Below are positions 40,293 to 50,836 of a stretch of DNA of 64,000 nt, piece after piece. The translations under genes and the position numbers were made by a program. The notes below the pieces were generated by a model that worked only from the letters and a program-made list of their open reading frames with translations, was not told where the DNA came from and did no database searches. Every line of letters starts with the position of its first letter. The first letter of the stretch is position 1. The stretch comes from an uncultured Planctomycetia bacterium (GTDB lineage: Bacteria; Omnitrophota; Gorgyraeia; 2-02-FULL-51-18). Where the stretch lies: NCBI GenBank assembly GCA_964628355.1, contig CAZVNB010000033.1, positions 4,965-68,964 on the forward strand, in the 5' to 3' direction.

Positions 40293-40328
40293 GAAAGTGG
40301 AGAAAATACCAAGCAGTTAGTCCGAAGG

Positions 40329-41619
40329 GGTGACGTCAATCAAATTGGGTAAATTGCTTTAAGGGTTTGTTCTTCCAGTTGTTGTTTAAGTGCGTAAAGA
40401 TGGCGTAAATGATGCGTTCACTTGAGGCGATATTCGAGAAGCAGGAGAACACTCTCGTTCTACGCCTAACCTCTCGGAAGGCCCGTTCAATGGCGTTGGT
40501 TGTCCGGATTTTGATCTGGTGCGACTTCGGACAGTCCAGGAAGGCGAGCATCTCTTCCAGGTCCTTTTCAAGACAATGAACCGCTTGGGGCGCCCTCTTC
40601 TGCCAGTCCCTCTTCCAGGCCTTGAACTCGGCGACGGCCTTGAGTCGGTTTGGTGCTTGGTAGATTCCTCGCGCCTGGTCAATCAACTCTTCTTCGTAGG
40701 CCTTCTTGCAGTAATTGGAGACATTCCTGAGCTTGTGAGCCCAACAGCGTTGGATCTTGGAGTGAGGATAGACGAGTTCAGCGGCTGTTTTTAAACCGGC
40801 TGATCCGTCCATGGCGATGAGTTTTAGGTTCTCCCCTTTAAGGCCTCTCCGATAAAGAGAATTCAAAAGAGACTCCCATGAAGCTTGGGACTCCCCCTTG
40901 GCGGTCATGAACCCGATGAGTTTCCTTTCTCCAAAGACTGTGATGCCGTAAGCTACAAGGATCTTTCGGTTGTGATACCTGCCGTTGTAGAGGGTTTTCA
41001 AGGTAATGCCGTCCAGGATGAGATATTGGTATTCATCAAGAATGGGCGCTCTGTGGAATTGTGCGACTTTTTTATCCAGTCTCTTTGTGATATTGGAGAC
41101 CGTGCCGTGGGAGACTTTTGTGTCTAGGAGCTTAGAGATGGCCTCTCCCACACGGCGGGTTGAGACTCCGGCGAGGAAGATGCCTTCTATCGGGTCTAGC
41201 ACCAGATCCTGATGGCGGTGGTATCTTTTAAAGACTCTTGTTTTAAATTCAGCTCCACGGGCTCTTGGGACCTGAATGTCTTCGACTAGACCAAACTGGG
41301 TCACAAGACCACGGGAGTAATAGCCATGCCGGTAGACGGAGGCCTTGCGGTCGTAAGGAGCGCGTTTTAGTTCCTGGGTCATCTCTTCGGCCATGGTTGA
41401 TTCCATCAGTTCCTTCAAGAGTGTTTTTACCTTTTCTTTGGCATTTTCCTGCCAGAAGTTTTCTTTGACCTCTACCCACCAATCTTTTAGAATCTGGGAT
41501 TGTGGGAGTGTTCTTCCGTGTGCTTCCATGGGCGTATTCCTCCTTTGTGTGATAACTAGAAGGATACGCCCTTTTCTTTTCCTACCTACTTGAATTTACC
41601 CAATTTATTTTACGCTACC
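40329..41619 (-). mobile_element. IS256-family (Mutator-type) insertion sequence, ~1291 bp
   Basis: A single transposase ORF flanked by imperfect ~27-bp terminal inverted repeats sharing the core AAATTGGGTAAATT (40342-40355 and 41594-41607 as the reverse complement). No clean target-site duplication detected. Confidence 0.8.
40336..41529 (-). CDS. IS256-family transposase (Transposase_mut)
   Basis: 397 aa; DDE region with conserved LILDGITLK ... MDGSAGL ... CWAHKLRN ... AIERAFREVRRR blocks. Confidence 0.9.
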   Translation of the reverse strand: MEAHGRTLPQSQILKDWWVEVKENFWQENAKEKVKTLLKELMESTMAEEMTQELKRAPYDRKASVYRHGYYSRGLVTQFGLVEDIQVPRARGAEFKTRVFKRYHRHQDLVLDPIEGIFLAGVSTRRVGEAISKLLDTKVSHGTVSNITKRLDKKVAQFHRAPILDEYQYLILDGITLKTLYNGRYHNRKILVAYGITVFGERKLIGFMTAKGESQASWESLLNSLYRRGLKGENLKLIAMDGSAGLKTAAELVYPHSKIQRCWAHKLRNVSNYCKKAYEEELIDQARGIYQAPNRLKAVAEFKAWKRDWQKRAPQAVHCLEKDLEEMLAFLDCPKSHQIKIRTTNAIERAFREVRRRTRVFSCFSNIASSERIIYAIFTHLNNNWKNKPLKQFTQFD

Positions 41620-42140
41620 TTTTCTGTAGAATTATCGAAGAACATCCAGCTGTCAACTTTATCTTTATAGATAAGTTGAAAATTATCGAGCGATCTTTGG
41701 AATCTCCTTCTCACGTCTTTTTCCGGAACGTTATGGCCTCCTTTTGAGACTCTCTGCTTTATTCGAGCCAGAGAAAGATGGGCATCAGGCACCCATAGAA
41801 AAAATAAAAAAATCTGATACCCCTCAGCCCTAAGCTGCGAAAATAATCGAGCGTTGGTTTTACCTGAAAGAGTGGTTTCAAACCCAAAATCCTTTAAGTG
41901 CGTAGCATATTCACGTATTCTCTTCAGAACTGTCCGACACGCCTGCATCGCTTCTCCTTCTGGGGAAAAGGGAGACAGCCCTTGGGCAACAAAATCTGCA
42001 TTAATAAAATTCGGGCAATGCACATAACTATGCAAAAACTCTTTAGCAAAAGTAGTTTTGCCCGAGCCGTTCGGGCCAGCGATGATGTAGAGGTTTTTAG
42101 GGTTCAAGTATTGCGTCCAACCTGTTCGATACTTTCCCAT
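41610..42140 (-). CDS. Zeta-toxin / COG4185-like P-loop kinase; the 3' end lies inside the IS terminal repeat
   Basis: Walker A IIAGPNGSGKTT with INADFVAQ downstream. The last codons (..VA-stop) are encoded by IS right-end sequence (41610-41619). Confidence 0.6.
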   Translation of the reverse strand: MGKYRTGWTQYLNPKNLYIIAGPNGSGKTTFAKEFLHSYVHCPNFINADFVAQGLSPFSPEGEAMQACRTVLKRIREYATHLKDFGFETTLSGKTNARLFSQLRAEGYQIFLFFLWVPDAHLSLARIKQRVSKGGHNVPEKDVRRRFQRSLDNFQLIYKDKVDSWMFFDNSTEKVA

Positions 42141-42500
42141 ACAATAGCGTAGGCCGCGTTCCATAATCGACTGAAATTATCATATTCATCCTTATTCGAA
42201 GGTAGCCCTATTTGTGTAAATGATGATTTGAGGATCTCTCCCTTGTAACTGACTTCTATCGATATCATGGACGCATCCAGGCCCACATAATCAAGTTTCC
42301 CCGTCTTTTGAAGCTCAGTCAGTTTTGCATAAACATCCGAGACAATTCTCTGGCCTTCACCAAACGGTTTTATTGACACTTCCGTAACTTTCCCTGTACG
42401 AATGCGGCCCGGATAATAACTTACTTTAACATAATCCTCACCAGCCCAGACTGACCTGCAAACTAATAAAAAAATGACGACTAAAAAACATTTCTTCATG
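42104..42500 (-). CDS. Secreted hypothetical protein
   Basis: Start ATG 42500 with GGAGA RBS. Signal peptide MKKCFLVVIFLLVCRSVWA. The listed 5' extension is leader sequence. Confidence 0.5.
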
Positions 42501-42514
42501 TTTTTCTCCTGGAA

Positions 42515-42710
42515 TTTAAAAAATAAACACCCCGCCTCCAAACTGGAAGCGAGGCGTCTTCTTTATTTTGTTACGCTTAACTACCCAGATTTGGGGTGCG
42601 AATGAGCGTCCAAATTGGCTCCCCGGCTTTGGACGCCATTCGAACCACAGAATCCCGCCAGGAAGTGGTGCTTTTGATCAAACTCTATAGGGTCCGTCGA
42701 AAGGGTCTTT
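42515..42710 (-). repeat. Repeat family A, copy 1 (full length): a structured ~190-bp element with a long hairpin and a terminator adjacent to the downstream gene's RBS
   Basis: Near-identical to 44786-44920 and to 46545-46636 (truncated). Hairpin 42599-42642: ~16-19 bp stem, 13-nt loop. Minus-strand terminator 42527-42557 (10-bp GC-rich stem) followed by UGUUUAUUUUUU. Confidence 0.8.
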
Positions 42711-42748
42711 TAGTATCTTTGGGGTGAAAATCCAATAAAAAGCGAGCT

Positions 42749-43189
42749 TTACCTTGCAACAGGAGGAGCTGACGAAGTCTCTTGCCTTTTTCCTAGTTCT
42801 TTTCTTTGAGTCTTAGTATTATTTACAGCCACCCACACAAGACCGCCCAAATCTAAAGCGGCGACAATTCCGGCAGTAGCGGGATTACCGTTAATTGCAA
42901 TTTCCTTGGCAACATACAAACCAAAAATCGCGATCGAAGTCCCTGCTATCATTCCCAAATAGGACTTCACAAGGTTTGAATTAACAACCTTGTTTTCTAG
43001 GCCCATTCTGTGATCGGATTGCTTCTCAGCCATGCGAATTATTCGTTCGGCCGAGCCGGGAACAATATTATTATACTGCTGTAGAATCTGTGGAGCCGGA
43101 ATGGGGCCGCTGATTTCCGTATAGGTTGCTACGCGTGCTGGCGGAGGATTGCTGGGATTATTTCGGGCAGGGGGATTATTATCTGGCAT
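42749..43189 (-). CDS. DUF2335-like membrane protein
   Basis: Pro-rich N-terminus, conserved PAPQILQQYNNIVPGSAERII.MAEKQ block, and two C-terminal TM segments. Confidence 0.45.
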   Translation of the reverse strand: MPDNNPPARNNPSNPPPARVATYTEISGPIPAPQILQQYNNIVPGSAERIIRMAEKQSDHRMGLENKVVNSNLVKSYLGMIAGTSIAIFGLYVAKEIAINGNPATAGIVAALDLGGLVWVAVNNTKTQRKELGKRQETSSAPPVAR

Positions 43190-43442
43190 CCGACGCTAAC
43201 TCTTGAGACGCCAAAATCAAATGATCGCCAACCGATGCCCAGTCGCTGTAAAGAGCTTGATTATCAGCTTCCTGCGGGGTCAAATTTTCATTATAAACAT
43301 CCTGGTTGCCGAGGATATCCAAAACCCTAGACATCCCTTCGGTCAGCGAAGGATTGGCAAACAAACGGCCCGATCTAAAAAACAGTGTGCTATTCATAGT
43401 TATATTATGCCATATGAAAACGAAGGCTGACTAATTAAAAGA

Positions 43443-43471
43443 TCCCGGCTCCACGGGAAGCCGGGGCCAGC
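43443..43471 (-). terminator. Intrinsic-terminator-like hairpin 3' of the 43608-44054 gene
   Basis: Minus strand CCCGGCU-UCCCGUGG-AGCCGGG followed by AUCUUUUAAUU. A related but degenerate sequence lies at 45670-45698. Confidence 0.45.
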
Positions 43472-43607
43472 AAAACACGAGGTCTTGCTGGGATGATGTT
43501 GCAAGCATACCATCCACAACAAAGCTTAGTCAAGAAATTGAGTTTCAAAAAACTGCCTGTGAAAATGAACAAATCGCGTAGGCTGAGAAATTCGTGCCGA
43601 TATCCGC

Positions 43608-44054
43608 TTATTGCTTAATCTCGCTCTTCATCTTTTGTGGGAACTCAGCGATAATCTCTGGTTTCTTAAATAATCTGTAAATATAAAAGAAAATTAGTCC
43701 CATAATGATAAACATTGCCAACATTCCTACCCAAACCACCAAAAGCTTCATATCCACCTCGTGACCAGATTGTTTATTCGTCACTGCAGGGACAACAGTA
43801 GCCAACAAAAACCCAAAGAAACCCAGAATTGCCATGCATATGCTCAAGAAAGATAAGTAGACGAGAGCTACACGCGCAATATTTTTTCGCAATAGAATTC
43901 CCACACCTAATGGCACAAGAATTAGAGGTAAATAAACCCCTCTCAACAACCCAAGTAATCCCCACAAAACGAGTACCCAGCTAATAATATTGATTTTAGT
44001 TTTTGATTTCATAGGGGATCTTTGATACAAGAGAACTTTTATATTTACGTACAA
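43608..44054 (-). CDS. Small integral membrane protein, hypothetical
   Basis: Four predicted TM helices; 148 aa. Confidence 0.4.
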   Translation of the reverse strand: MYVNIKVLLYQRSPMKSKTKINIISWVLVLWGLLGLLRGVYLPLILVPLGVGILLRKNIARVALVYLSFLSICMAILGFFGFLLATVVPAVTNKQSGHEVDMKLLVVWVGMLAMFIIMGLIFFYIYRLFKKPEIIAEFPQKMKSEIKQ

Positions 44055-44700
44055 ATTCCAGAGCTATATTCGCGACGGTTAAACCAATTTGAAATAGATA
44101 TTCATGCACTACCGGTACAATCAGCTTCTGATCTTTTAAAGAGTACTCCATTGTGAGGCTTTCCACCGGAGATCCAAAAACTCCGTGAGTTGAATCTGCA
44201 TGTGCCGCCTCTTGCCCAGCATATCTTTCGATAAGAAATCTCGGTGTGAAACTTCTCATCTTGGGAGTACGGCCTTCGTCAGGAACTTCCCAATCAAGTA
44301 AAAACCCGTTTTCCAGCCACTCACTTAAATCAATGGATGAATATAGTGATTGGCCGTCTTTTTCAGCAAACACAATTGGTAAACGACCTCCGGCTAATTG
44401 GGTAAATAATGCTCTTTTCTTAACTTGTTGGACAATCTTTCCGGTTGTAGAATCCATTTCTGTAATTTGTATAAAGCCGTTTTGATTAAGTTTCATCACA
44501 GAAAATATATCTTTGGTTTCTGCCGCTAATTCAGACATCAGTCCATCACCACTTTGTGATCCAACCAGAACTCTGAGTCTTATTCCGATGTTCTTTACTT
44601 CGTCAAAATTGTGATCGACAGCAAACCTATCGCAACTGTCCAACAATAATTGCGCATGGCTTCTGAGATCTTCTAATCTTTGTTGAAAATCCTTTTTCAT
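43996..44700 (-). CDS. Hypothetical protein
   Basis: ORF. The likely start is ATG 44700 (MKKDFQQRLEDL); the upstream part of the listed ORF overlaps repeat copy 2. Confidence 0.4.
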   Translation of the reverse strand: MKKDFQQRLEDLRSHAQLLLDSCDRFAVDHNFDEVKNIGIRLRVLVGSQSGDGLMSELAAETKDIFSVMKLNQNGFIQITEMDSTTGKIVQQVKKRALFTQLAGGRLPIVFAEKDGQSLYSSIDLSEWLENGFLLDWEVPDEGRTPKMRSFTPRFLIERYAGQEAAHADSTHGVFGSPVESLTMEYSLKDQKLIVPVVHEYLFQIGLTVANIALEFVRKYKSSLVSKIPYEIKN

Positions 44701-44785
44701 TTGATTCCATTTCCTAAGTAAGATACCCGCCCCTAACCGGGAGCGAGGTGTTAAGCATACAAACACAACGTTCAATACTCACTCG

Positions 44786-44920
44786 AACTGGGGTTCGAAT
44801 GAGCGTCCAAATTGGCTCCCCGGCTTGGACGCCATTCGAACCACAGAATCCAGCCAGGAAGTGCTACTTTTAGTCAAACTCTATAGGGTCCGGCGAAAGG
44901 GACTTTTGGTGTCTTTCGAG
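44786..44920 (-). repeat. Repeat family A, copy 2 (core conserved; gene-proximal terminator segment divergent)
   Basis: 44786-44920 aligns with 42592-42708 at >90% identity, including hairpin 44796-44838. Confidence 0.8.
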
Positions 44921-44947
44921 AAACCTTTCACCTAAAAAGAACAGAAA

Positions 44948-45268
44948 TCAAACGAATTGCAAAACCTGCTCGCTTCGCTTTCTATGCACCGCTTTGACTT
45001 TGAAGACAATGCCCAAGACGTTAAGAAACCGGATCAACGTTTCAAGCGTAATGTTTGATCCGTTTTCTATCCTGGCAACCACTTGCTGTTTGATTCCCAG
45101 TTTACCTGCAAGCTGTTTTTGGGTCAGGCCTTTTTTTTCTCTATATTCTACAAGATGTTCTAAAAGCTCAAGCTTTGAGGCTTCAAGCTCTATGCGGGCC
45201 TCTCTTTTCTTATCTTGGCCGATGAGCTTTTTTCTAACTTCTTCGTAACTTTCTCCGATATGTTTCAT
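44948..45268 (-). CDS. higA: HigA-like XRE-family antitoxin
   Basis: HTH_XRE: LTQKQLAGKLGIKQQVVARIENG. Sits immediately downstream of the toxin with a 4-nt overlap. Confidence 0.75.
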   Translation of the reverse strand: MKHIGESYEEVRKKLIGQDKKREARIELEASKLELLEHLVEYREKKGLTQKQLAGKLGIKQQVVARIENGSNITLETLIRFLNVLGIVFKVKAVHRKRSEQVLQFV

Positions 45269-45609
45269 GATAGCGCCTCTCTTTCCAAATAATCTGCTTT
45301 TCTTTTTAAAGCGATTTCAAGCTCTCTTTGCGGTATGTCACTCGTTCTTTTCAAAAAAGCGTGCAGCAATAGAACCTGTGTTCGCCTGTGAAAGCAACAT
45401 AAGATCCTGTTCCGATCAGGCCTAAGTTCATACAAGCCAAGCCCACCTCCAAGGCTATCCGTTATGGGTCTTCTAAGACCAAAACCAAACTGTGCCAACC
45501 TGTCCAAATAGGCGATCGCTTTATCTTGCTGCCTTTTTGGCGCTGAACTTAGATACTCGTGGACAGGAGAATTACCCTTTTCATCCTTGTAGAAGATTAT
45601 TTCAAACAC
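45265..45609 (-). CDS. higB: HigB-like (Gp49 / RelE-ParE superfamily) toxin
   Basis: Gp49-family pattern: FL..L....QAKI..L...G, then GLYELR, then LLHAF.K. Toxin-first gene order is typical of higBA. GTG start with GGAGA RBS. Confidence 0.7.
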   Translation of the reverse strand: MFEIIFYKDEKGNSPVHEYLSSAPKRQQDKAIAYLDRLAQFGFGLRRPITDSLGGGLGLYELRPDRNRILCCFHRRTQVLLLHAFLKRTSDIPQRELEIALKRKADYLEREALS

Positions 45610-45630
45610 TTGTTCTCCGGTCTTATCTCA

Positions 45631-45658
45631 AGTATACAGCATATAAGCTGTATGTCAA
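45631..45658 (-). promoter_or_regulatory. higBA promoter with palindromic operator
   Basis: Minus strand TTGACA, a 16-nt spacer, then TATACT. The spacer contains the perfect palindrome ACAGC-TTATAT-GCTGT, overlapping -10. Confidence 0.6.
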
Positions 45659-45708
45659 GTGGGTAAAAACCCGACTCCACAGGAAGCAGAGGCCAGCACT
45701 TACTTGGG

Positions 45709-46506
45709 CTATTTATTTTCAGGTTCTATCTTTGCCGGTTGAAATACGGTGCCAGGAACGTAGCGATAACCTTGTGGAATTGTCGGAAACTTTTGTTGAT
45801 TGAAAGCCTTAAGCTCTCCCTCGGTGATAACGTGCTTATCAATATCAGGAACGTTAACCTTATTGCTTTCGCGCCATTCCCATTTAAGTTGATTAATGGC
45901 AGTTTCGGCTGCATAGAGAGCGCCCATAAGTTCTTCTTGTTTTTTGGTAATAATCTCCCCGGTGTCGGTATCAAAGATTAGCGTACGATCATCGATCATC
46001 TGAGCCTCAAAGAGAAGCTTATTTCCATAGGACCGAGAAAAACCCAGTATATTTTTAATAACCGTATAATGGCTCTCGCTTGATGACACATTATTAGCAG
46101 ACCCAGCAGTATCCAACGTTGAGTAAGACTTCAGAAGTTTACCGGTTTTGTAGAAGGCTAGCGCGAGTTCTCCCGCTGAGGCTTCATGTCCTCTAGACCA
46201 CGCTCCGGTTTGAACCACACAAACTGTATCAGGACTCGCAGCAAAACCATCAAGAAAAATATTCGGTGAGTACCAATCATATTGGTGCACAAGGAGATCA
46301 TCTTTGTCTGTAACCTGATAAATTTTAGTTTTACCTTTCAAACCATAACTTTCGGCAGGGATTGATTTGGCGTAGAAACCGCCCCATTCGTTCGATTTGA
46401 CATATGGTCGATTACCCGCTTCATCATCAGCAAAAGAAAGCTGGGTTAAAGAAATAGATATTCCAAATACGAAAATAATTGCGAATAATTTTTTCATGTC
46501 AATCAT
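45709..46506 (-). CDS. Secreted hypothetical protein
   Basis: Signal peptide MKKLFAIIFVFGISISLTQLSFA; 265 aa. Confidence 0.45.
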   Translation of the reverse strand: MIDMKKLFAIIFVFGISISLTQLSFADDEAGNRPYVKSNEWGGFYAKSIPAESYGLKGKTKIYQVTDKDDLLVHQYDWYSPNIFLDGFAASPDTVCVVQTGAWSRGHEASAGELALAFYKTGKLLKSYSTLDTAGSANNVSSSESHYTVIKNILGFSRSYGNKLLFEAQMIDDRTLIFDTDTGEIITKKQEELMGALYAAETAINQLKWEWRESNKVNVPDIDKHVITEGELKAFNQQKFPTIPQGYRYVPGTVFQPAKIEPENK

Positions 46507-46544
46507 TAAAATCGATTCCTTAACATTAGACTCCGGAACAATAC

Positions 46545-46636
46545 GCCCCGCCTCTAAACTGGGAGCGAGGCGTCTTCTTTATTTTGTTACGCTTAACTAC
46601 CCCGACTTGGGATGCGAATGAGCGTCCAAATTGGTA
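46545..46636 (-). repeat. Repeat family A, copy 3 (truncated within the long hairpin at the GIY-YIG junction)
   Basis: 46545-46636 matches 42528-42617 (terminator segment plus the left half of the hairpin). Homology stops at ...CGTCCAAATTGG and is followed by the palindrome GATCAAT-CACGTG-ATCGAC. Confidence 0.75.
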
Positions 46637-46640
46637 TCGA

Positions 46641-46916
46641 TCAATCACGTGATCGACTTAAGCTTCTTAAAGAATAAAAATCACCATGAATCAGTGCCAA
46701 CTTCTTGGCGCGACTCCAGCACTTAATCTGTGCTTCACGCTTTTTAGCGTCTACTTTGGATCGATGTTCTTCTTGATAAACCAAGCGAGCGGGTGGATTG
46801 TAGCCGGTATAATGCGACGTGCCTTCTCGATGTTCCCTCAGCCGCCGATTAAGATCGTTCGTTACACCTGTATAAAATGATCCGTCTGCGCATTCTAAAA
46901 TATAAACCGTCCACAT
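46641..46916 (-). CDS. GIY-YIG nuclease-family protein
   Basis: VYILECADGSFYTGVTNDLNRRLREH is the GIY-(x10)-YIG motif; 91 aa. Confidence 0.75.
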   Translation of the reverse strand: MWTVYILECADGSFYTGVTNDLNRRLREHREGTSHYTGYNPPARLVYQEEHRSKVDAKKREAQIKCWSRAKKLALIHGDFYSLRSLSRSRD

Positions 46917-47190
46917 TGATATTGTCCTTCGACGCGTTCGCTTCGCTCACTTGCTCAGGATGGATTCGGTGGTGAGCAAGGCGGATGGCCAAAAGGCCAT
47001 CCGCCGCGTCGAATCCACTCCACGAGCAGATATCCCAGGGAACCTTAATCTGCTCAAAAAGCACTGTTAAATTTCAAAAAGCACTCAAAAACACCACCCG
47101 ACTTACCCGGGCCAGTCAATTCTCCCACGCCGAAGAGATGGCCGCGCTTTGGAGCGATTCTCCAGAGTTGTTGCGGTGGGTGAAGGTGTC

Positions 47191-47709
47191 TTAAAAAACA
47201 CTATTATAAGGCAACACAAAGTGAGGTTCTTTAGCTTGCCTCCATAAAACCTCGACTGCCTGATTTAACACATTGCTCCAAAAAGTCATTTGACCACTGA
47301 TGTCTTCAATTTGACCGCTTTCGGACATTTTTATCCATACATTGATATTCCTGGTGGATTTAGGATCCAAGATGTAAGGGGCCGGTACAATGGTGAAGGT
47401 GCAAGTATTATCGTTGTTCATGACAAAGTTTTGTATCGTGTTATCCGTCGTTGAAAAAGTTTCGATTTTTAAAGCAACATCCTTCTGTTGGGGAAATGGA
47501 GTCATATAAATATGCTTCCATGCAATCTCGGACTTTCCATCAACATTTCTAATAAAAATATTTGCTATAATCTTAGTCCCTGGCATCTTCCCATTTTCGT
47601 ATACATCTAAATATTCCGTACCACCAACTCCTAAATCATCATGTAAGCCGGCATAAGCACAAGCTGTAAGAGTTAAAAATAATAAAACTACTAACACAAC
47701 GCGCTTCAT
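47191..47709 (-). CDS. Secreted hypothetical protein
   Basis: Signal peptide MKRVVLVVLLFLTLTACAYA; 172 aa. Confidence 0.45.
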   Translation of the reverse strand: MKRVVLVVLLFLTLTACAYAGLHDDLGVGGTEYLDVYENGKMPGTKIIANIFIRNVDGKSEIAWKHIYMTPFPQQKDVALKIETFSTTDNTIQNFVMNNDNTCTFTIVPAPYILDPKSTRNINVWIKMSESGQIEDISGQMTFWSNVLNQAVEVLWRQAKEPHFVLPYNSVF

Positions 47710-47735
47710 GAATAATCCTTTAATTTAATCTCGCT

Positions 47736-48524
47736 TTACTCAAAAGTAAAAGTACCGTCCGAAGTGATTCCCAATCGGTCTCGTCGTTCGGCGCGCAAGT
47801 CACGTACCGGATTGCCCCCCCAAGCCCCCTTGGCAGGAATTTTAGTGCCCTTAGGTAGATAGCTGCAAGGAGCAATGGAGGCCCCGTCTCCGATTTCGCA
47901 GTCGGGCATGATCACCGAGCCAAGACCAACTGAGGCGTTATTGCCTATTTTGGTGGGTGCCAAGCGCAAAAAACCACGTTCCGAGGCATGACAAATTAGC
48001 GCTACACCTCCACCGATCAGCACATTGTTGCCTATTTCAAGCATCGATAGATCCGCAAGACCAGCTGTATTTATATTCACTCCTTCCCCTACCTTGGCTC
48101 CCATGAGACGATAAAACAACGTTTGAAACGGCGAAAGACGTAAAACATCCAAAAAGGCGCTATTGGCGATTAAAATCATAGAGTTGTATCCCATCCACCG
48201 AAGGGCTTCTGGGGAATGAATGGCGTAAAGACCCGATGCAATCTTAAATCTGAAAATATTCTTTGTGAGAACGCAAAGAAAAATCAGTGTTGTGCCAAAA
48301 ATAAAATAACCCAATGAAATTGAAAAAGAAAATGCCAGCACTCTGAGCCAAAGTGCGTATGCCACTGTCAATTTCCACGTGCCGATAAGAAAAAAGACCA
48401 TGGGAAAAAGAGAAAAACCTAGCACAAAAATAGCTATAAAATGCAGAAAAATAATCCAAAGCTCAAAACGCGTGGCTTCCCACTTGGCTTTTTTACTTTT
48501 ATCATTCGGACTAGCTTCAGTCAT
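47736..48524 (-). CDS. Membrane-anchored hexapeptide-repeat (left-handed beta-helix) acyl/acetyltransferase
   Basis: N-terminal ~4 TM helices. C-terminal hexapeptide repeats (GAKVGEGVNINTAGLADLSMLEIGNNVLIGGGV...IGNNASVGLGSVI...IGDGASIA). Confidence 0.6.
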   Translation of the reverse strand: MTEASPNDKSKKAKWEATRFELWIIFLHFIAIFVLGFSLFPMVFFLIGTWKLTVAYALWLRVLAFSFSISLGYFIFGTTLIFLCVLTKNIFRFKIASGLYAIHSPEALRWMGYNSMILIANSAFLDVLRLSPFQTLFYRLMGAKVGEGVNINTAGLADLSMLEIGNNVLIGGGVALICHASERGFLRLAPTKIGNNASVGLGSVIMPDCEIGDGASIAPCSYLPKGTKIPAKGAWGGNPVRDLRAERRDRLGITSDGTFTFE

Positions 48525-48604
48525 GCCGCTAATTTAACATTCTTATCTACACTGTGCAAAGGTAAATACAGCAACACTGTGCATAATCGCCTTTACTAAG
48601 TAAA

Positions 48605-48839
48605 GGTTACCAGCACCCTTACTTGTGCCCTTACACATCTAGTTGGCAGGACACTTTTTTCTTTTAAGCAAGACAGAGTATGCAAGTGCAGTTTCTTGGT
48701 AACTAATTCCATCTCCTTGTGTCCCCTCCACTGATTAGGGTATGTGCGTACGTGCTTTTAATGTCTTGCTTAAAAGAAAAAAGTGTCCTGCCAACGTGAG
48801 TTTGAGTGGATAGCTTTACCGAGAATAAGGGTGCTGGCA
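48605..48839. repeat. Compound inverted-repeat element (inverton- or MITE-like)
   Basis: A perfect 32-bp inverted repeat (48643-48674 and 48763-48794) flanks an 88-bp core. An outer 16-bp inverted repeat (48605-48620 and 48824-48839) has one mismatch. The element lies in the divergent intergenic region between 47736-48524 (minus) and 48928-49677 (plus). Confidence 0.8.
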
Positions 48840-48927
48840 ACTGAGTATAGCTCAGTTAATGAGATATTCTTAATGCTGGTTCGTGAAATTCTTAATTAAA
48901 AGAACATGAGTATGCTAAACTCACCGC

Positions 48928-49677
48928 ATGAGTCAAACACAAAAGTTTATTTTGGTAACTGGAGGCACCCGGGGAATCGGAAAAGCGATCACCCTGTCGC
49001 AGGTAAAAAAGACTTGTACGATTTTTTTAAATTACCTACGTGACGATGCTTCCGCGATGAAGGTGAAAAAAACCGCCGAAAAAAAAGGTTCCCGTGTCGT
49101 TCTTCTGCCAGGCAATGTCGGTGATGCGGAAACGGTATCCTGCCTATTTCAGTCAATTCAAAAAGAAACAAACCGCCTAGATGCCCTGATTCACAGCGCG
49201 GCACTCGGGGTTTTTAAACCCGTCCATCAATTGCGCGTGAAAGATTGGGATATTTCACTCGACGTGAATGCGAAGGCATTTTTGCTCCTCACGCAGGCAA
49301 CGTTGCCATTGATGAAAAAATACGGTGGTAAAATCCTTGCAATCTCAAGCCTCGGATCACGGCGTTTCACACCCAATTACGGAGCCATCGGCATTTCGAA
49401 AGCAGCGCTAGAAAACCTGGTGCGTTATCTTGCTGTTGAACTGGCACCGCATAAAATTCATGTAAATGCGGTGTCAGGGGGACTGGTCGAGACCGATTCT
49501 CTCAAGATGTTCCCCAATTTTGAGTCAATGAAGAAAGCTTACCTTTCTCGAACGCCGGGAGCTCGTCTGGGAAAACCACAAGATATTGCGGATATCGTTT
49601 CCTTTCTTTTAAGTCCTCAGGCTAACTGGATTTACGGTCAGACGATTATCGCGGATGGCGGCTATTCTCTCTTTTAA
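48928..49677 (+). CDS. SDR-family oxidoreductase (FabG-like)
   Basis: TGGTRGIGKAI Rossmann motif, NAA and S...Y..K catalytic elements. Confidence 0.8.
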   Translation: MSQTQKFILVTGGTRGIGKAITLSQVKKTCTIFLNYLRDDASAMKVKKTAEKKGSRVVLLPGNVGDAETVSCLFQSIQKETNRLDALIHSAALGVFKPVHQLRVKDWDISLDVNAKAFLLLTQATLPLMKKYGGKILAISSLGSRRFTPNYGAIGISKAALENLVRYLAVELAPHKIHVNAVSGGLVETDSLKMFPNFESMKKAYLSRTPGARLGKPQDIADIVSFLLSPQANWIYGQTIIADGGYSLF

Positions 49678-50836
49678 TTCTCTGGCTTTTTTCTATTCAT
49701 TCCTGGTCATCGCGGTTTGGACACGACGTGTTTTTTGGATGTCAAAGTTCCGAAAAACCAACCCACCTCTCAAACCCATCGAGCAGTCCAATATCCGGGT
49801 GAACGAGAAAATTTCCGTTATTGTTCCTGCGCGCAATGAGGAAAAAAATATTGCACGTTGTCTTTTTCATCTTTTAAGGCAAAATTATAAGAATTTTGAA
49901 ATTATTGTGGTGGATGACCGTTCCGATGACCGCACGGGACACCTTTTACAAAACTTCAAAGGGCTGTCCGAACTACCGTTTAAAATAATCCGTATCGAAA
50001 AACTCCCTTCAGGCTGGACAGGGAAAAACCATGCCATGTTCGTGGGATCAAAAGCGGCAACAGGATCCTGGCTCCTTTTCACGGACGCGGACACAACGCA
50101 CCAACCGGCATCACTTGGCACAGCCATTAGTTGTGCGGTTGAAAATAAAATCGATTTCCTAACACTTGCACCGGAAACTGAATGTCGTACGTTTTGGGAA
50201 AAAACGGTGCAACCTCTCGCCGTTTCGAGCCTCGCGCTGTGGTTTAACACAGTAGAAGTGAACAATCCACTTTCAAAAATTGTGCTTGCCAATGGTCAGT
50301 ATATTTTGATCCGGAAAAATATCTATGAAGCGGTGGGAGGAAATGAGTCCGTAAAATCAGAAGTGGTGGAAGATGTGGAACTGGCCAAAAAAGTAAAAGC
50401 CGCGGGTTACGCGATTCGCTTTCTTAACGGCACCGAGCTTTATTCGACACGCATGTACAGCTCGCTAAAAGAAATTAAGACCGGCTGGACGCGTATCTAC
50501 ACTTATCTATTCAATAAAAAAGTTCCGCTGATCCTGCATAAAATATTTCTATTTTTATTTTTTTCTATCCTCCCTTTCATTGTTTTAGGTCTTGAAAAAT
50601 TCTGGTTTTTTTCCGGGTCGGCGCTTTATAATCCGACGGTTTGCGTAATATCTCTTTTTGCCTGCACATGGATAATTCTTATTCGTTTTTTTGGAAACAA
50701 GCTTCTAAAATGCAATCCTTGGTACGCCCTGCTTCACCCCGTCGGGTCGCTGGTGATGTTGTGGGTTCTTGCCTCTTGCCTGGGAAGAATAATTTTCAAC
50801 CAACCGTCGGTGTGGCGCGGGGATTCTTACCGTTAA
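49655..50836 (+). CDS. Family 2 glycosyltransferase with C-terminal TM region
   Basis: VIVPARNEE, IIVVDDRSDD and LFTDADT (DXD) motifs. An alternative start at ATG 49739 is possible. Confidence 0.7.
   Translation: MAAILSFNSLAFFYSFLVIAVWTRRVFWMSKFRKTNPPLKPIEQSNIRVNEKISVIVPARNEEKNIARCLFHLLRQNYKNFEIIVVDDRSDDRTGHLLQNFKGLSELPFKIIRIEKLPSGWTGKNHAMFVGSKAATGSWLLFTDADTTHQPASLGTAISCAVENKIDFLTLAPETECRTFWEKTVQPLAVSSLALWFNTVEVNNPLSKIVLANGQYILIRKNIYEAVGGNESVKSEVVEDVELAKKVKAAGYAIRFLNGTELYSTRMYSSLKEIKTGWTRIYTYLFNKKVPLILHKIFLFLFFSILPFIVLGLEKFWFFSGSALYNPTVCVISLFACTWIILIRFFGNKLLKCNPWYALLHPVGSLVMLWVLASCLGRIIFNQPSVWRGDSYR

Follow-up and report, generated by a model that had tools for sequence, protein, structure and literature searches.

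Invertons such as fimS, hin, the Bacteroides capsule promoters, and the C. difficile switches have short inverted repeats around a non-coding segment located next to surface-structure genes. The locus described here shares this arrangement; its arms are identical, and the region appears to have been inverted at least once in evolution. It differs from the described invertons in having no recombinase in the window (the whole 64-kb stretch of DNA that was analyzed), no inner promoter, and no dyad sub-sites in the arms, and in the position of the gene promoters, which lie outside the element. Promoters located between inverted repeats are frequently not invertons (PMC11602134).

Two groups of repeated elements also provide a natural comparison. 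MITEs and the Correia-type elements of Neisseria (about 100-160 bp, intergenic) resemble the window element in size, long terminal repeats, location next to a promoter, and hairpin potential. The window element differs from them in being present in a single copy without a clean target duplication, in having arms homologous to repeats resident at the same locus in a relative, and in having no family members in the searched collections. REP doublets (REPINs or BIMEs) similarly consist of two inverted copies of a short unit that form a hairpin. However, REPINs occur in tens to hundreds of copies together with a RAYT transposase, whereas the present case involves a single locus with four unit copies. 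No RAYT (IS200/IS605-like) gene was found in Pfam scans of the window open reading frames (ORFs).

Paired operator or activator sites of divergent promoters that work by looping (ara O2/I1, gal OE/OI, deo) are similar in another respect: in the window, too, two identical sites are located upstream of back-to-back promoters, at a distance of about 120 bp from each other. Moreover, the unit is conserved across lineages (the window and L063) and occurs in several copies. The window unit, a putative binding site, differs in its length of 34 bp and its lack of dyad symmetry. Finally, the correction of quasi-palindromes by intramolecular template switching is an established mutational mechanism in E. 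coli. The window resembles its products in having a perfect repeat within a larger imperfect palindrome and in the non-uniform divergence along it. This is an origin mechanism rather than a functional class, and it is suggested here by the identity pattern alone. As the evidence now stands, the intergenic inverted repeat described below is new in sequence and ordinary in concept. A literature search on inverted repeats in Omnitrophota gave nothing relevant.

The inverted repeat and its genomic setting

The element is located between two back-to-back lipid/glycolipid-synthesis operons of an Omnitrophota-like bacterium (Table 1). Gene calls agree with the sequence-only reading of this DNA, which had placed the repeat between a divergent acyltransferase gene (start 48524) and an SDR/GT2 pair (start 48928). 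The nearest genomes are uncultured Omnitrophota or 'Planctomycetia' MAGs, with GT2 identity of 59-67%; the nearest acyltransferases are 86-88% identical, and hundreds of homologs are present in public data. In relatives, the acyltransferase gene is followed directly by genes for FabZ-like dehydratases, acyl carrier protein, phosphopantetheinyl transferase, and ketosynthases. In the window, a 7-kb mobile/toxin-antitoxin island (40324-47710) splits the acyltransferase gene from the FabZ/ACP/ketosynthase genes. The island contains an IS256-family transposase gene (40336-41529) with 32-nt terminal repeats, and also encodes a zeta toxin, DUF2335, a Gp49/HTH_3 pair, a GIY-YIG protein, and two secreted hypothetical proteins. 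The window has no tRNA, and the idea of a tRNA-associated att site was abandoned.

The repeat had been described as a pair of perfect 32-bp arms around an 88-bp core. It is real and perfect, but its arms measure 34 nt each, are 100% complementary, and lie 86 nt apart. The reported outer pair with one mismatch also exists, as a 16-nt inverted repeat that encloses the inner arms; its right arm starts at 48826 and not at 48824, two bases away from the position given, and the other earlier coordinates are likewise accurate to two bases or better. The centers of the inner arms are 120 bp apart, which is not an integral number of helical turns. The right arm is followed by GTGAGT, likewise in L063; the candidate conserved sequence is RTGYCCNGGCAAC-GTGAGT. 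The core is not palindromic, with 30% identity to its own reverse complement. An imperfect 11-nt direct repeat (9/11) is found at the outer arms, with a chance probability of roughly 1-5% by a rough estimate.

A chance origin of the repeat, considered improbable from the start, can be dismissed. The 34-mer occurs at two sites only in the 64-kb window, even if three mismatches are allowed, and no match with up to three mismatches to it was seen in 100 dinucleotide-preserving shuffles. In length, the arm pair far exceeds every other local inverted repeat of the 64-kb window. Single-strand folding of positions 48590-48860 (271 nt) yields -117.8 kcal/mol, with z = -12.4 relative to shuffles.

In an independent Logan assembly of run ERR4904393, both flanks were recovered, along with the outermost 12-14 nt of either arm. 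The Logan contigs (k = 31) stop inside the arms, at 48653/48654 (end of L002) and 48781/48782 (start of L001), and hence the interior, 48654-48781, comes from the window's assembly alone. Neither a 34-nt repeat at k = 31 nor inversion predicts these break points. They suggest either that coverage collapsed symmetrically within the stem or that a second allele exists in the interval 48654-48781.

Table 1. Features of the divergent promoter region and the adjacent genes (window coordinates)
Feature	Positions	Strand	Remarks
Membrane hexapeptide-repeat acyltransferase (Pls/PosA terminal-domain-like)	47736-48524	-	
Promoter and leader module	48525-48561		Orthologous to the SDR-side module of L038; here it adjoins the acyltransferase gene and is thus in inverted orientation with respect to the genes
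Extended -10 TGTTAAATT of the acyltransferase gene (predicted)	48531-48539	-	12.3 bits; 6 nt before ATG; outside the repeat
TGCATAATCGCC, putative degenerate relic similar to -10 and leader sequences of acyltransferase type in relatives	48580-48591	+	By eye against L038; below 6 bits
Small flanking hairpin CCTTTAC-TAA-GTAAAGG	48590-48606		Overlap with the left direct-repeat copy (9/11; ACTAAGTAAAG, 48595-48605)
Outer left arm	48606-48621		16 nt; probable 3' part of a second, degenerate unit u', reverse orientation
Left inter-unit spacer	48622-48641		20 nt; poor complementarity to the right spacer
Inner left arm	48642-48675		34 nt; reverse-complement copy of repeat unit u; homologous to the L063 tandem unit
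Core between the arms	48676-48761		86 nt, asymmetric; no promoter-like match or significant similarity to relatives
Inner right arm	48762-48795		34 nt; repeat unit u in + orientation
Right inter-unit spacer	48796-48825		30 nt
Outer right arm	48826-48841		Probable 3' part of u' (..GGTGCTGGCAAC); aligns with the second L063 unit
Small flanking hairpin AACTGAG-TATAG-CTCAGTT	48840-48858		Overlap with the right direct-repeat copy (9/11; ACTGAGTATAG, 48840-48850)
Extended -10 TGCTAAACT of the SDR-GT2 operon (predicted)	48913-48921	+	10.3 bits; 6 nt before ATG; outside the repeat
SDR, FabL-like enoyl-ACP reductase	48928-49677	+	
GT2, HpnB/CruG-like	49655-50836	+	SDR-GT2 operon 48928-50836

Promoters of the divergent gene pair

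The same divergent gene pair is present in about 20 relatives (L003-L007, L038, L043-L055), where the start codons are usually 40-75 bp apart. On both sides of these intergenic regions we observed a conserved TGnTAnAnT 6-9 nt before the ATG. No Shine-Dalgarno sequence precedes either divergent gene across about 20 related loci. We infer that TGnTAnAnT represents extended -10 promoters that give leaderless mRNAs for both genes throughout the clade.

A clade-specific extended -10 matrix was built from 34 promoters of relatives, with the weakest training site scoring 8.5 bits. When the intergenic region of the window was scanned with this matrix, exactly two matches were obtained, one directly upstream of each gene (Table 1). 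Within the arms and core nothing reaches 6 bits on either strand, and a generic sigma-70 scan gave no promoter-like site in the core or arms and no terminator; these scans covered only sigma-70-type sites and the extended -10 of the clade. A promoter inside the core, as anticipated for an invertible switch, was therefore found in neither orientation by the sigma-70 scan or by the clade matrix. Readings of the arm as a sigma-54 promoter, an ECF-type promoter, or an integron attC site were rejected after a by-eye check only, as the key positions misfit.

Since both predicted promoters adjoin the start codons and lie outside the element, the element is upstream of both inferred transcription starts. 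Hence, a flip of the core would neither connect nor disconnect these promoters. The element itself would not be transcribed from the two gene promoters. The degenerate relic at the acyltransferase side points towards the element. Short direct repeats occur near both promoters: ACACTGTGCA is found twice, 25 bp apart (48549-48558 and 48574-48583), and (A/T)ATTCTTAAT twice, 22 bp apart (48865-48874 and 48887-48896). These could be operator-like sites or footprints of rearrangement.

Repeat units and rearrangements in related genomes

In the sister lineage L038, the intergenic region measures 52 bp and lacks the element, and the promoter modules are arranged differently. Positions 48525-48561 of the window, next to the acyltransferase start, match leader and spacer sequence from the SDR side of L038, with 84% identity over 37 nt (E = 6e-5). 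The score of this match is 44 against a null maximum of 27, and it is significant in inverted orientation only. The types of -10 hexamers are exchanged between the window and L038 as well. Thus, in the window the acyltransferase gene has the SDR-type module and the SDR gene has the acyltransferase-type module (48913-48927), opposite to L038. This swap implies a probable evolutionary inversion with breakpoints at or beside both start codons. In this respect the earlier suspicion of a divergent promoter region subject to recombination is borne out, with an acyltransferase-side module that is inverted relative to the sister lineage. In the SDR-proximal flank there is one weak match in standard orientation (p = 0.003, uncorrected), which suggests that a part of this flank kept that orientation. 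The history of the locus is not reducible to one simple event. An attempt to explain the element flanks as relics of the 5' coding end of the acyltransferase gene gave no significant match.

The origin of the arms is best seen in L063. This metagenome contig encodes an acyltransferase 82% identical to that of the window and ends 170 bp upstream of the gene, inside a tandem array with a 49-bp period (1.9 copies and a partial one by TRF, 88% matches). Window positions 48772-48801 match L063 positions 26-54 with 26/29 identical nucleotides and a score of 43 against a null maximum of 26. The L063 units are tandem direct repeats upstream of the same gene, and the window arms would therefore be copies of a locus-resident unit and not imported DNA. 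The right half of the window element (u, spacer, u') is collinear with two L063 units; on this ground the outer arms would be the 3' parts of a second, degenerate unit. We infer, with considerable confidence, that the window holds two facing two-unit arrays, u'<- u<- core u-> u'->. A profile of four unit copies (nhmmer) found only those four in 403 kb. A clearly homologous unit is present in just one further lineage, L063, and conservation is thus judged from two genomes.

Comparison of these units reveals an uneven divergence along the palindrome. The inner arms are identical at 34/34 positions and the outer arms at 15/16, whereas the spacers agree in 12/31 aligned columns with a 9-nt indel (Fisher 1e-8). 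This pattern would mean either conversion of the units or constraint on them. The identity between the window and L063 units is about 74% overall and 90% over the 3' part. Because identity of the arms within the genome exceeds identity of the units between the lineages, gene conversion or a recent template-switch correction probably took place, and the pattern points to one of these processes as the likely cause of arm homogenization. The perfect identity over 34 bp is also expected from an active inversion system or from a very recent duplication. The remaining intergenic DNA is not alignable between the window and L063, and a 26/29 match amid such DNA suggests that the unit may be under constraint.

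Other lineages contain different palindromes at the same location. L036 (34-241) and L050 (2222-2463) have a fully palindromic element of 210-240 bp in the same promoter spacer, with inner parts about 75% identical. The outer arms of this element differ between the two genomes and are perfect within each, a pattern that indicates probable concerted evolution. In L036 (1-26 and 307-332) and L005 (3025-3048 and 3230-3253), the promoter, leader, and start codon of one gene form with those of the other an inverted repeat of 24-26 nt with 88-96% identity. In some lineages, the two promoters seem to have been converted to each other. In L062 (170-279), the same spacer between the promoters contains yet another inverted repeat, unrelated in sequence, which is 32 nt long (30/32) and has a loop of 46 nt. 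Long inverted repeats of such kind are otherwise rare, with 12 in 403 kb. By eye, the window arm resembles the perfect arm of L036 (TTGG..CACTTTTCTTT), but shuffle-tested local alignment gave p = 0.45-0.8 for L036, L050, and L062, and this candidate homology was rejected. L062 has a further 26-nt repeat downstream of the acyltransferase gene (1233-1355).

Origin and possible role of the element

The explanation that we prefer, tentatively and at slightly less than even confidence, is that the element consists of paired inverted upstream repeats, resident at this locus and probably bound by a protein, which were homogenized by conversion within a bidirectional promoter prone to recombination. 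A unit of about 35-49 bp would be native to the upstream region of the bidirectional acyltransferase/SDR promoter in an Omnitrophota-like subclade, and the element would be neither imported mobile DNA nor a promoter cassette. In the window lineage, the array would be present in both orientations, and the acyltransferase-side promoter module would have been flipped relative to the sister lineage. The inner arms may have been kept, or recently made, identical by gene conversion, and the inter-unit spacers would have drifted apart. Conversion probably proceeded either through recombination of one arm with the other or through intramolecular template switching within a quasi-palindrome. The units are predicted to be binding sites for a regulator or an architectural protein, 85-320 bp upstream of the two putative leaderless extended -10 promoters; placed symmetrically, they would serve the divergent lipid/glycolipid operons on either side. 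The two promoters, which are close together in most relatives, would here be set apart by an additional 350 bp or so. The binding-site interpretation is weakened by the absence of dyad symmetry in the arm, by its length, as 34 bp is long for a single binding site, and by the 120-bp spacing of the arm centers, which does not correspond to whole helical turns.

The lack of dyad symmetry also fits an alternative with the same origin and no function. In this case, the divergent promoter region, quasi-palindromic and negatively supercoiled, would have undergone template switching or inverted duplication repeatedly and left the palindrome as a neutral by-product, and the 34-bp perfection would mark only the latest quasi-palindrome correction. 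Several lineages acquired long inverted repeats of unrelated sequence in this spacer, and the sister lineage L038 manages with a 52-bp intergenic region. The 100% identity of the arms within the genome, far above the identity of about 74% between lineages, is a signature of conversion and not of selection. However, the 3' part of the unit with its flank retains 26/29 identity with L063 amid unalignable intergenic DNA, and each of the two genomes retains several copies of the unit; we consider a purely neutral origin unlikely, although it deserves to be taken seriously. It is rather doubtful that a foldback or MITE-like element, non-autonomous and 154 or about 236 bp long, inserted between the promoters at what would be an insertion hot spot. 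Such an insertion would account for the terminal inverted repeats, the small size without an ORF, the absence from L038, and the imperfect direct repeat at the outer arms; in addition, genuine small MITEs occur in L055 and, within the SDR start codon, in L048, and the 7-kb island lies on the other side of the acyltransferase gene. Yet the element, for which the sequence-only reading had offered a MITE as one of its candidates, occurs once in 64 kb. No exact match to the arm 30-mer was found in GTDB species representatives, JGI metagenomes, or IMG/VR, the degenerate unit motif has no match in IMG/VR viral contigs, and a sensitive blastn search of plasmids and phages with the element gave none. 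A look-up of the 45-aa ORF inside the element for other core-carrying contigs also yielded none. The inner arms have no target duplication, and the termini are unlike those of the IS256-family element of the window. Although L038 lacks the element, the junctions give no clean scar, and L063 has homologous units, as direct repeats, at the locus itself.

In an inverton, the other candidate put forward from the sequence, recombination of the site-specific or homologous type would flip either the 86-bp core or the larger segment between the outer arms, and expression of one or both operons would change as a result (phase variation). Perfect, homogenized inverted repeats around an asymmetric core between divergent surface-lipid/glycolipid genes, the promoter module inverted at least once in evolution, and the Logan contig breaks in the arms are all in line with it. 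But the expected invertase is lacking from the window: Pfam scans of the ORFs of the 64-kb window gave no tyrosine or serine recombinase, and the sole transposase is of the IS256 family. The core and arms gave no promoter match in the sigma-70 and clade-matrix scans, and the fixed promoters of both genes are outside. The arm has no internal dyad of the lox, FRT, or hix type, the best half-site complementarity being 0.67, a value equaled by 65% of shuffles. For synapsis, a core of 86 bp counts as very short, and breaks 12-14 nt into the arms differ from the expectation for inversion of identical 34-nt arms. We therefore regard an inverton as distinctly unlikely. No discriminating feature that was tested backs the inverton and MITE readings, and they are not supported. 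A more general version, in which the nested inverted repeats (promoter arms, outer arms, and inner arms) drive a recombinational flip-flop that reversibly swaps the upstream regulatory modules of both operons, is improbable as well. If true, it would represent phase variation in the uncultivated phylum Omnitrophota via general recombination or an unlinked, unrecognized recombinase, with the putative second allele at the contig breaks as one of the states of the switch.

Two further readings concern the RNA and the assembly. The possibility that the element is transcribed throughout and acts as a long-hairpin sRNA, an attenuator, or a 5' leader, with processing by an RNase specific for double strands, draws on the very stable predicted hairpin and on the -10-like relic pointing into the element. 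An attenuator or sRNA had been listed among the alternatives; it is unlikely because the element is upstream of both inferred transcription starts, with the gene promoters downstream of it and adjoining the start codons. The relic scores below 6 bits, there is no terminator, and Rfam 15 at the gathering threshold gave no match; at E <= 10 the sole match was to a plant miRNA hairpin, with 40 bits against a gathering score of 245. The stem consists of 34/34 Watson-Crick pairs with zero wobble pairs, and the two mismatches of the L062 repeat are not wobble-compatible on either strand. Taken as a whole, a structured RNA is highly improbable. An assembly artifact inside the arms could be invoked for the interior 48654-48781, which the Logan contigs do not reproduce. 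Against this, both flanks and the outer parts of both arms were reproduced exactly, the core is unique and asymmetric and lies in the middle of a 91.5-kb contig, and the arm has an independent homolog in L063, which leaves an artifact barely credible. A retron msr-msd reading was rejected, as the neighbors are the acyltransferase and SDR genes and there is no adjacent reverse transcriptase gene.

The locus provides a lesson for annotation. When a perfect long inverted repeat is found in a divergent promoter, the positions of the promoters, the presence of a recombinase, and the same site in relatives should be checked before an inverton or a MITE is called. In several Omnitrophota lineages, a spacer of roughly 25 bp between putative back-to-back leaderless promoters has gained unrelated long palindromes. 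Probable concerted evolution of the arms, together with the flipped promoter module, would make this region a natural case for studying growth and homogenization of palindromes in uncultured bacteria with streamlined genomes. A first handle on the control of a conserved lipid gene cluster in Omnitrophota would be at hand, should the units prove to bind a regulator.

The small MITEs of related genomes form a genuine family of about 80 bp (L048, 128-213; L055, 5078-5157), with an empty site in L051 near position 1632. Their terminal repeats are CCCCACCACCTC(C/T)TT, and insertion is accompanied by a 3-bp duplication, TCA/TGA. In L048, the right end of the MITE located in the SDR start codon provides GGAGG and a GTG start.
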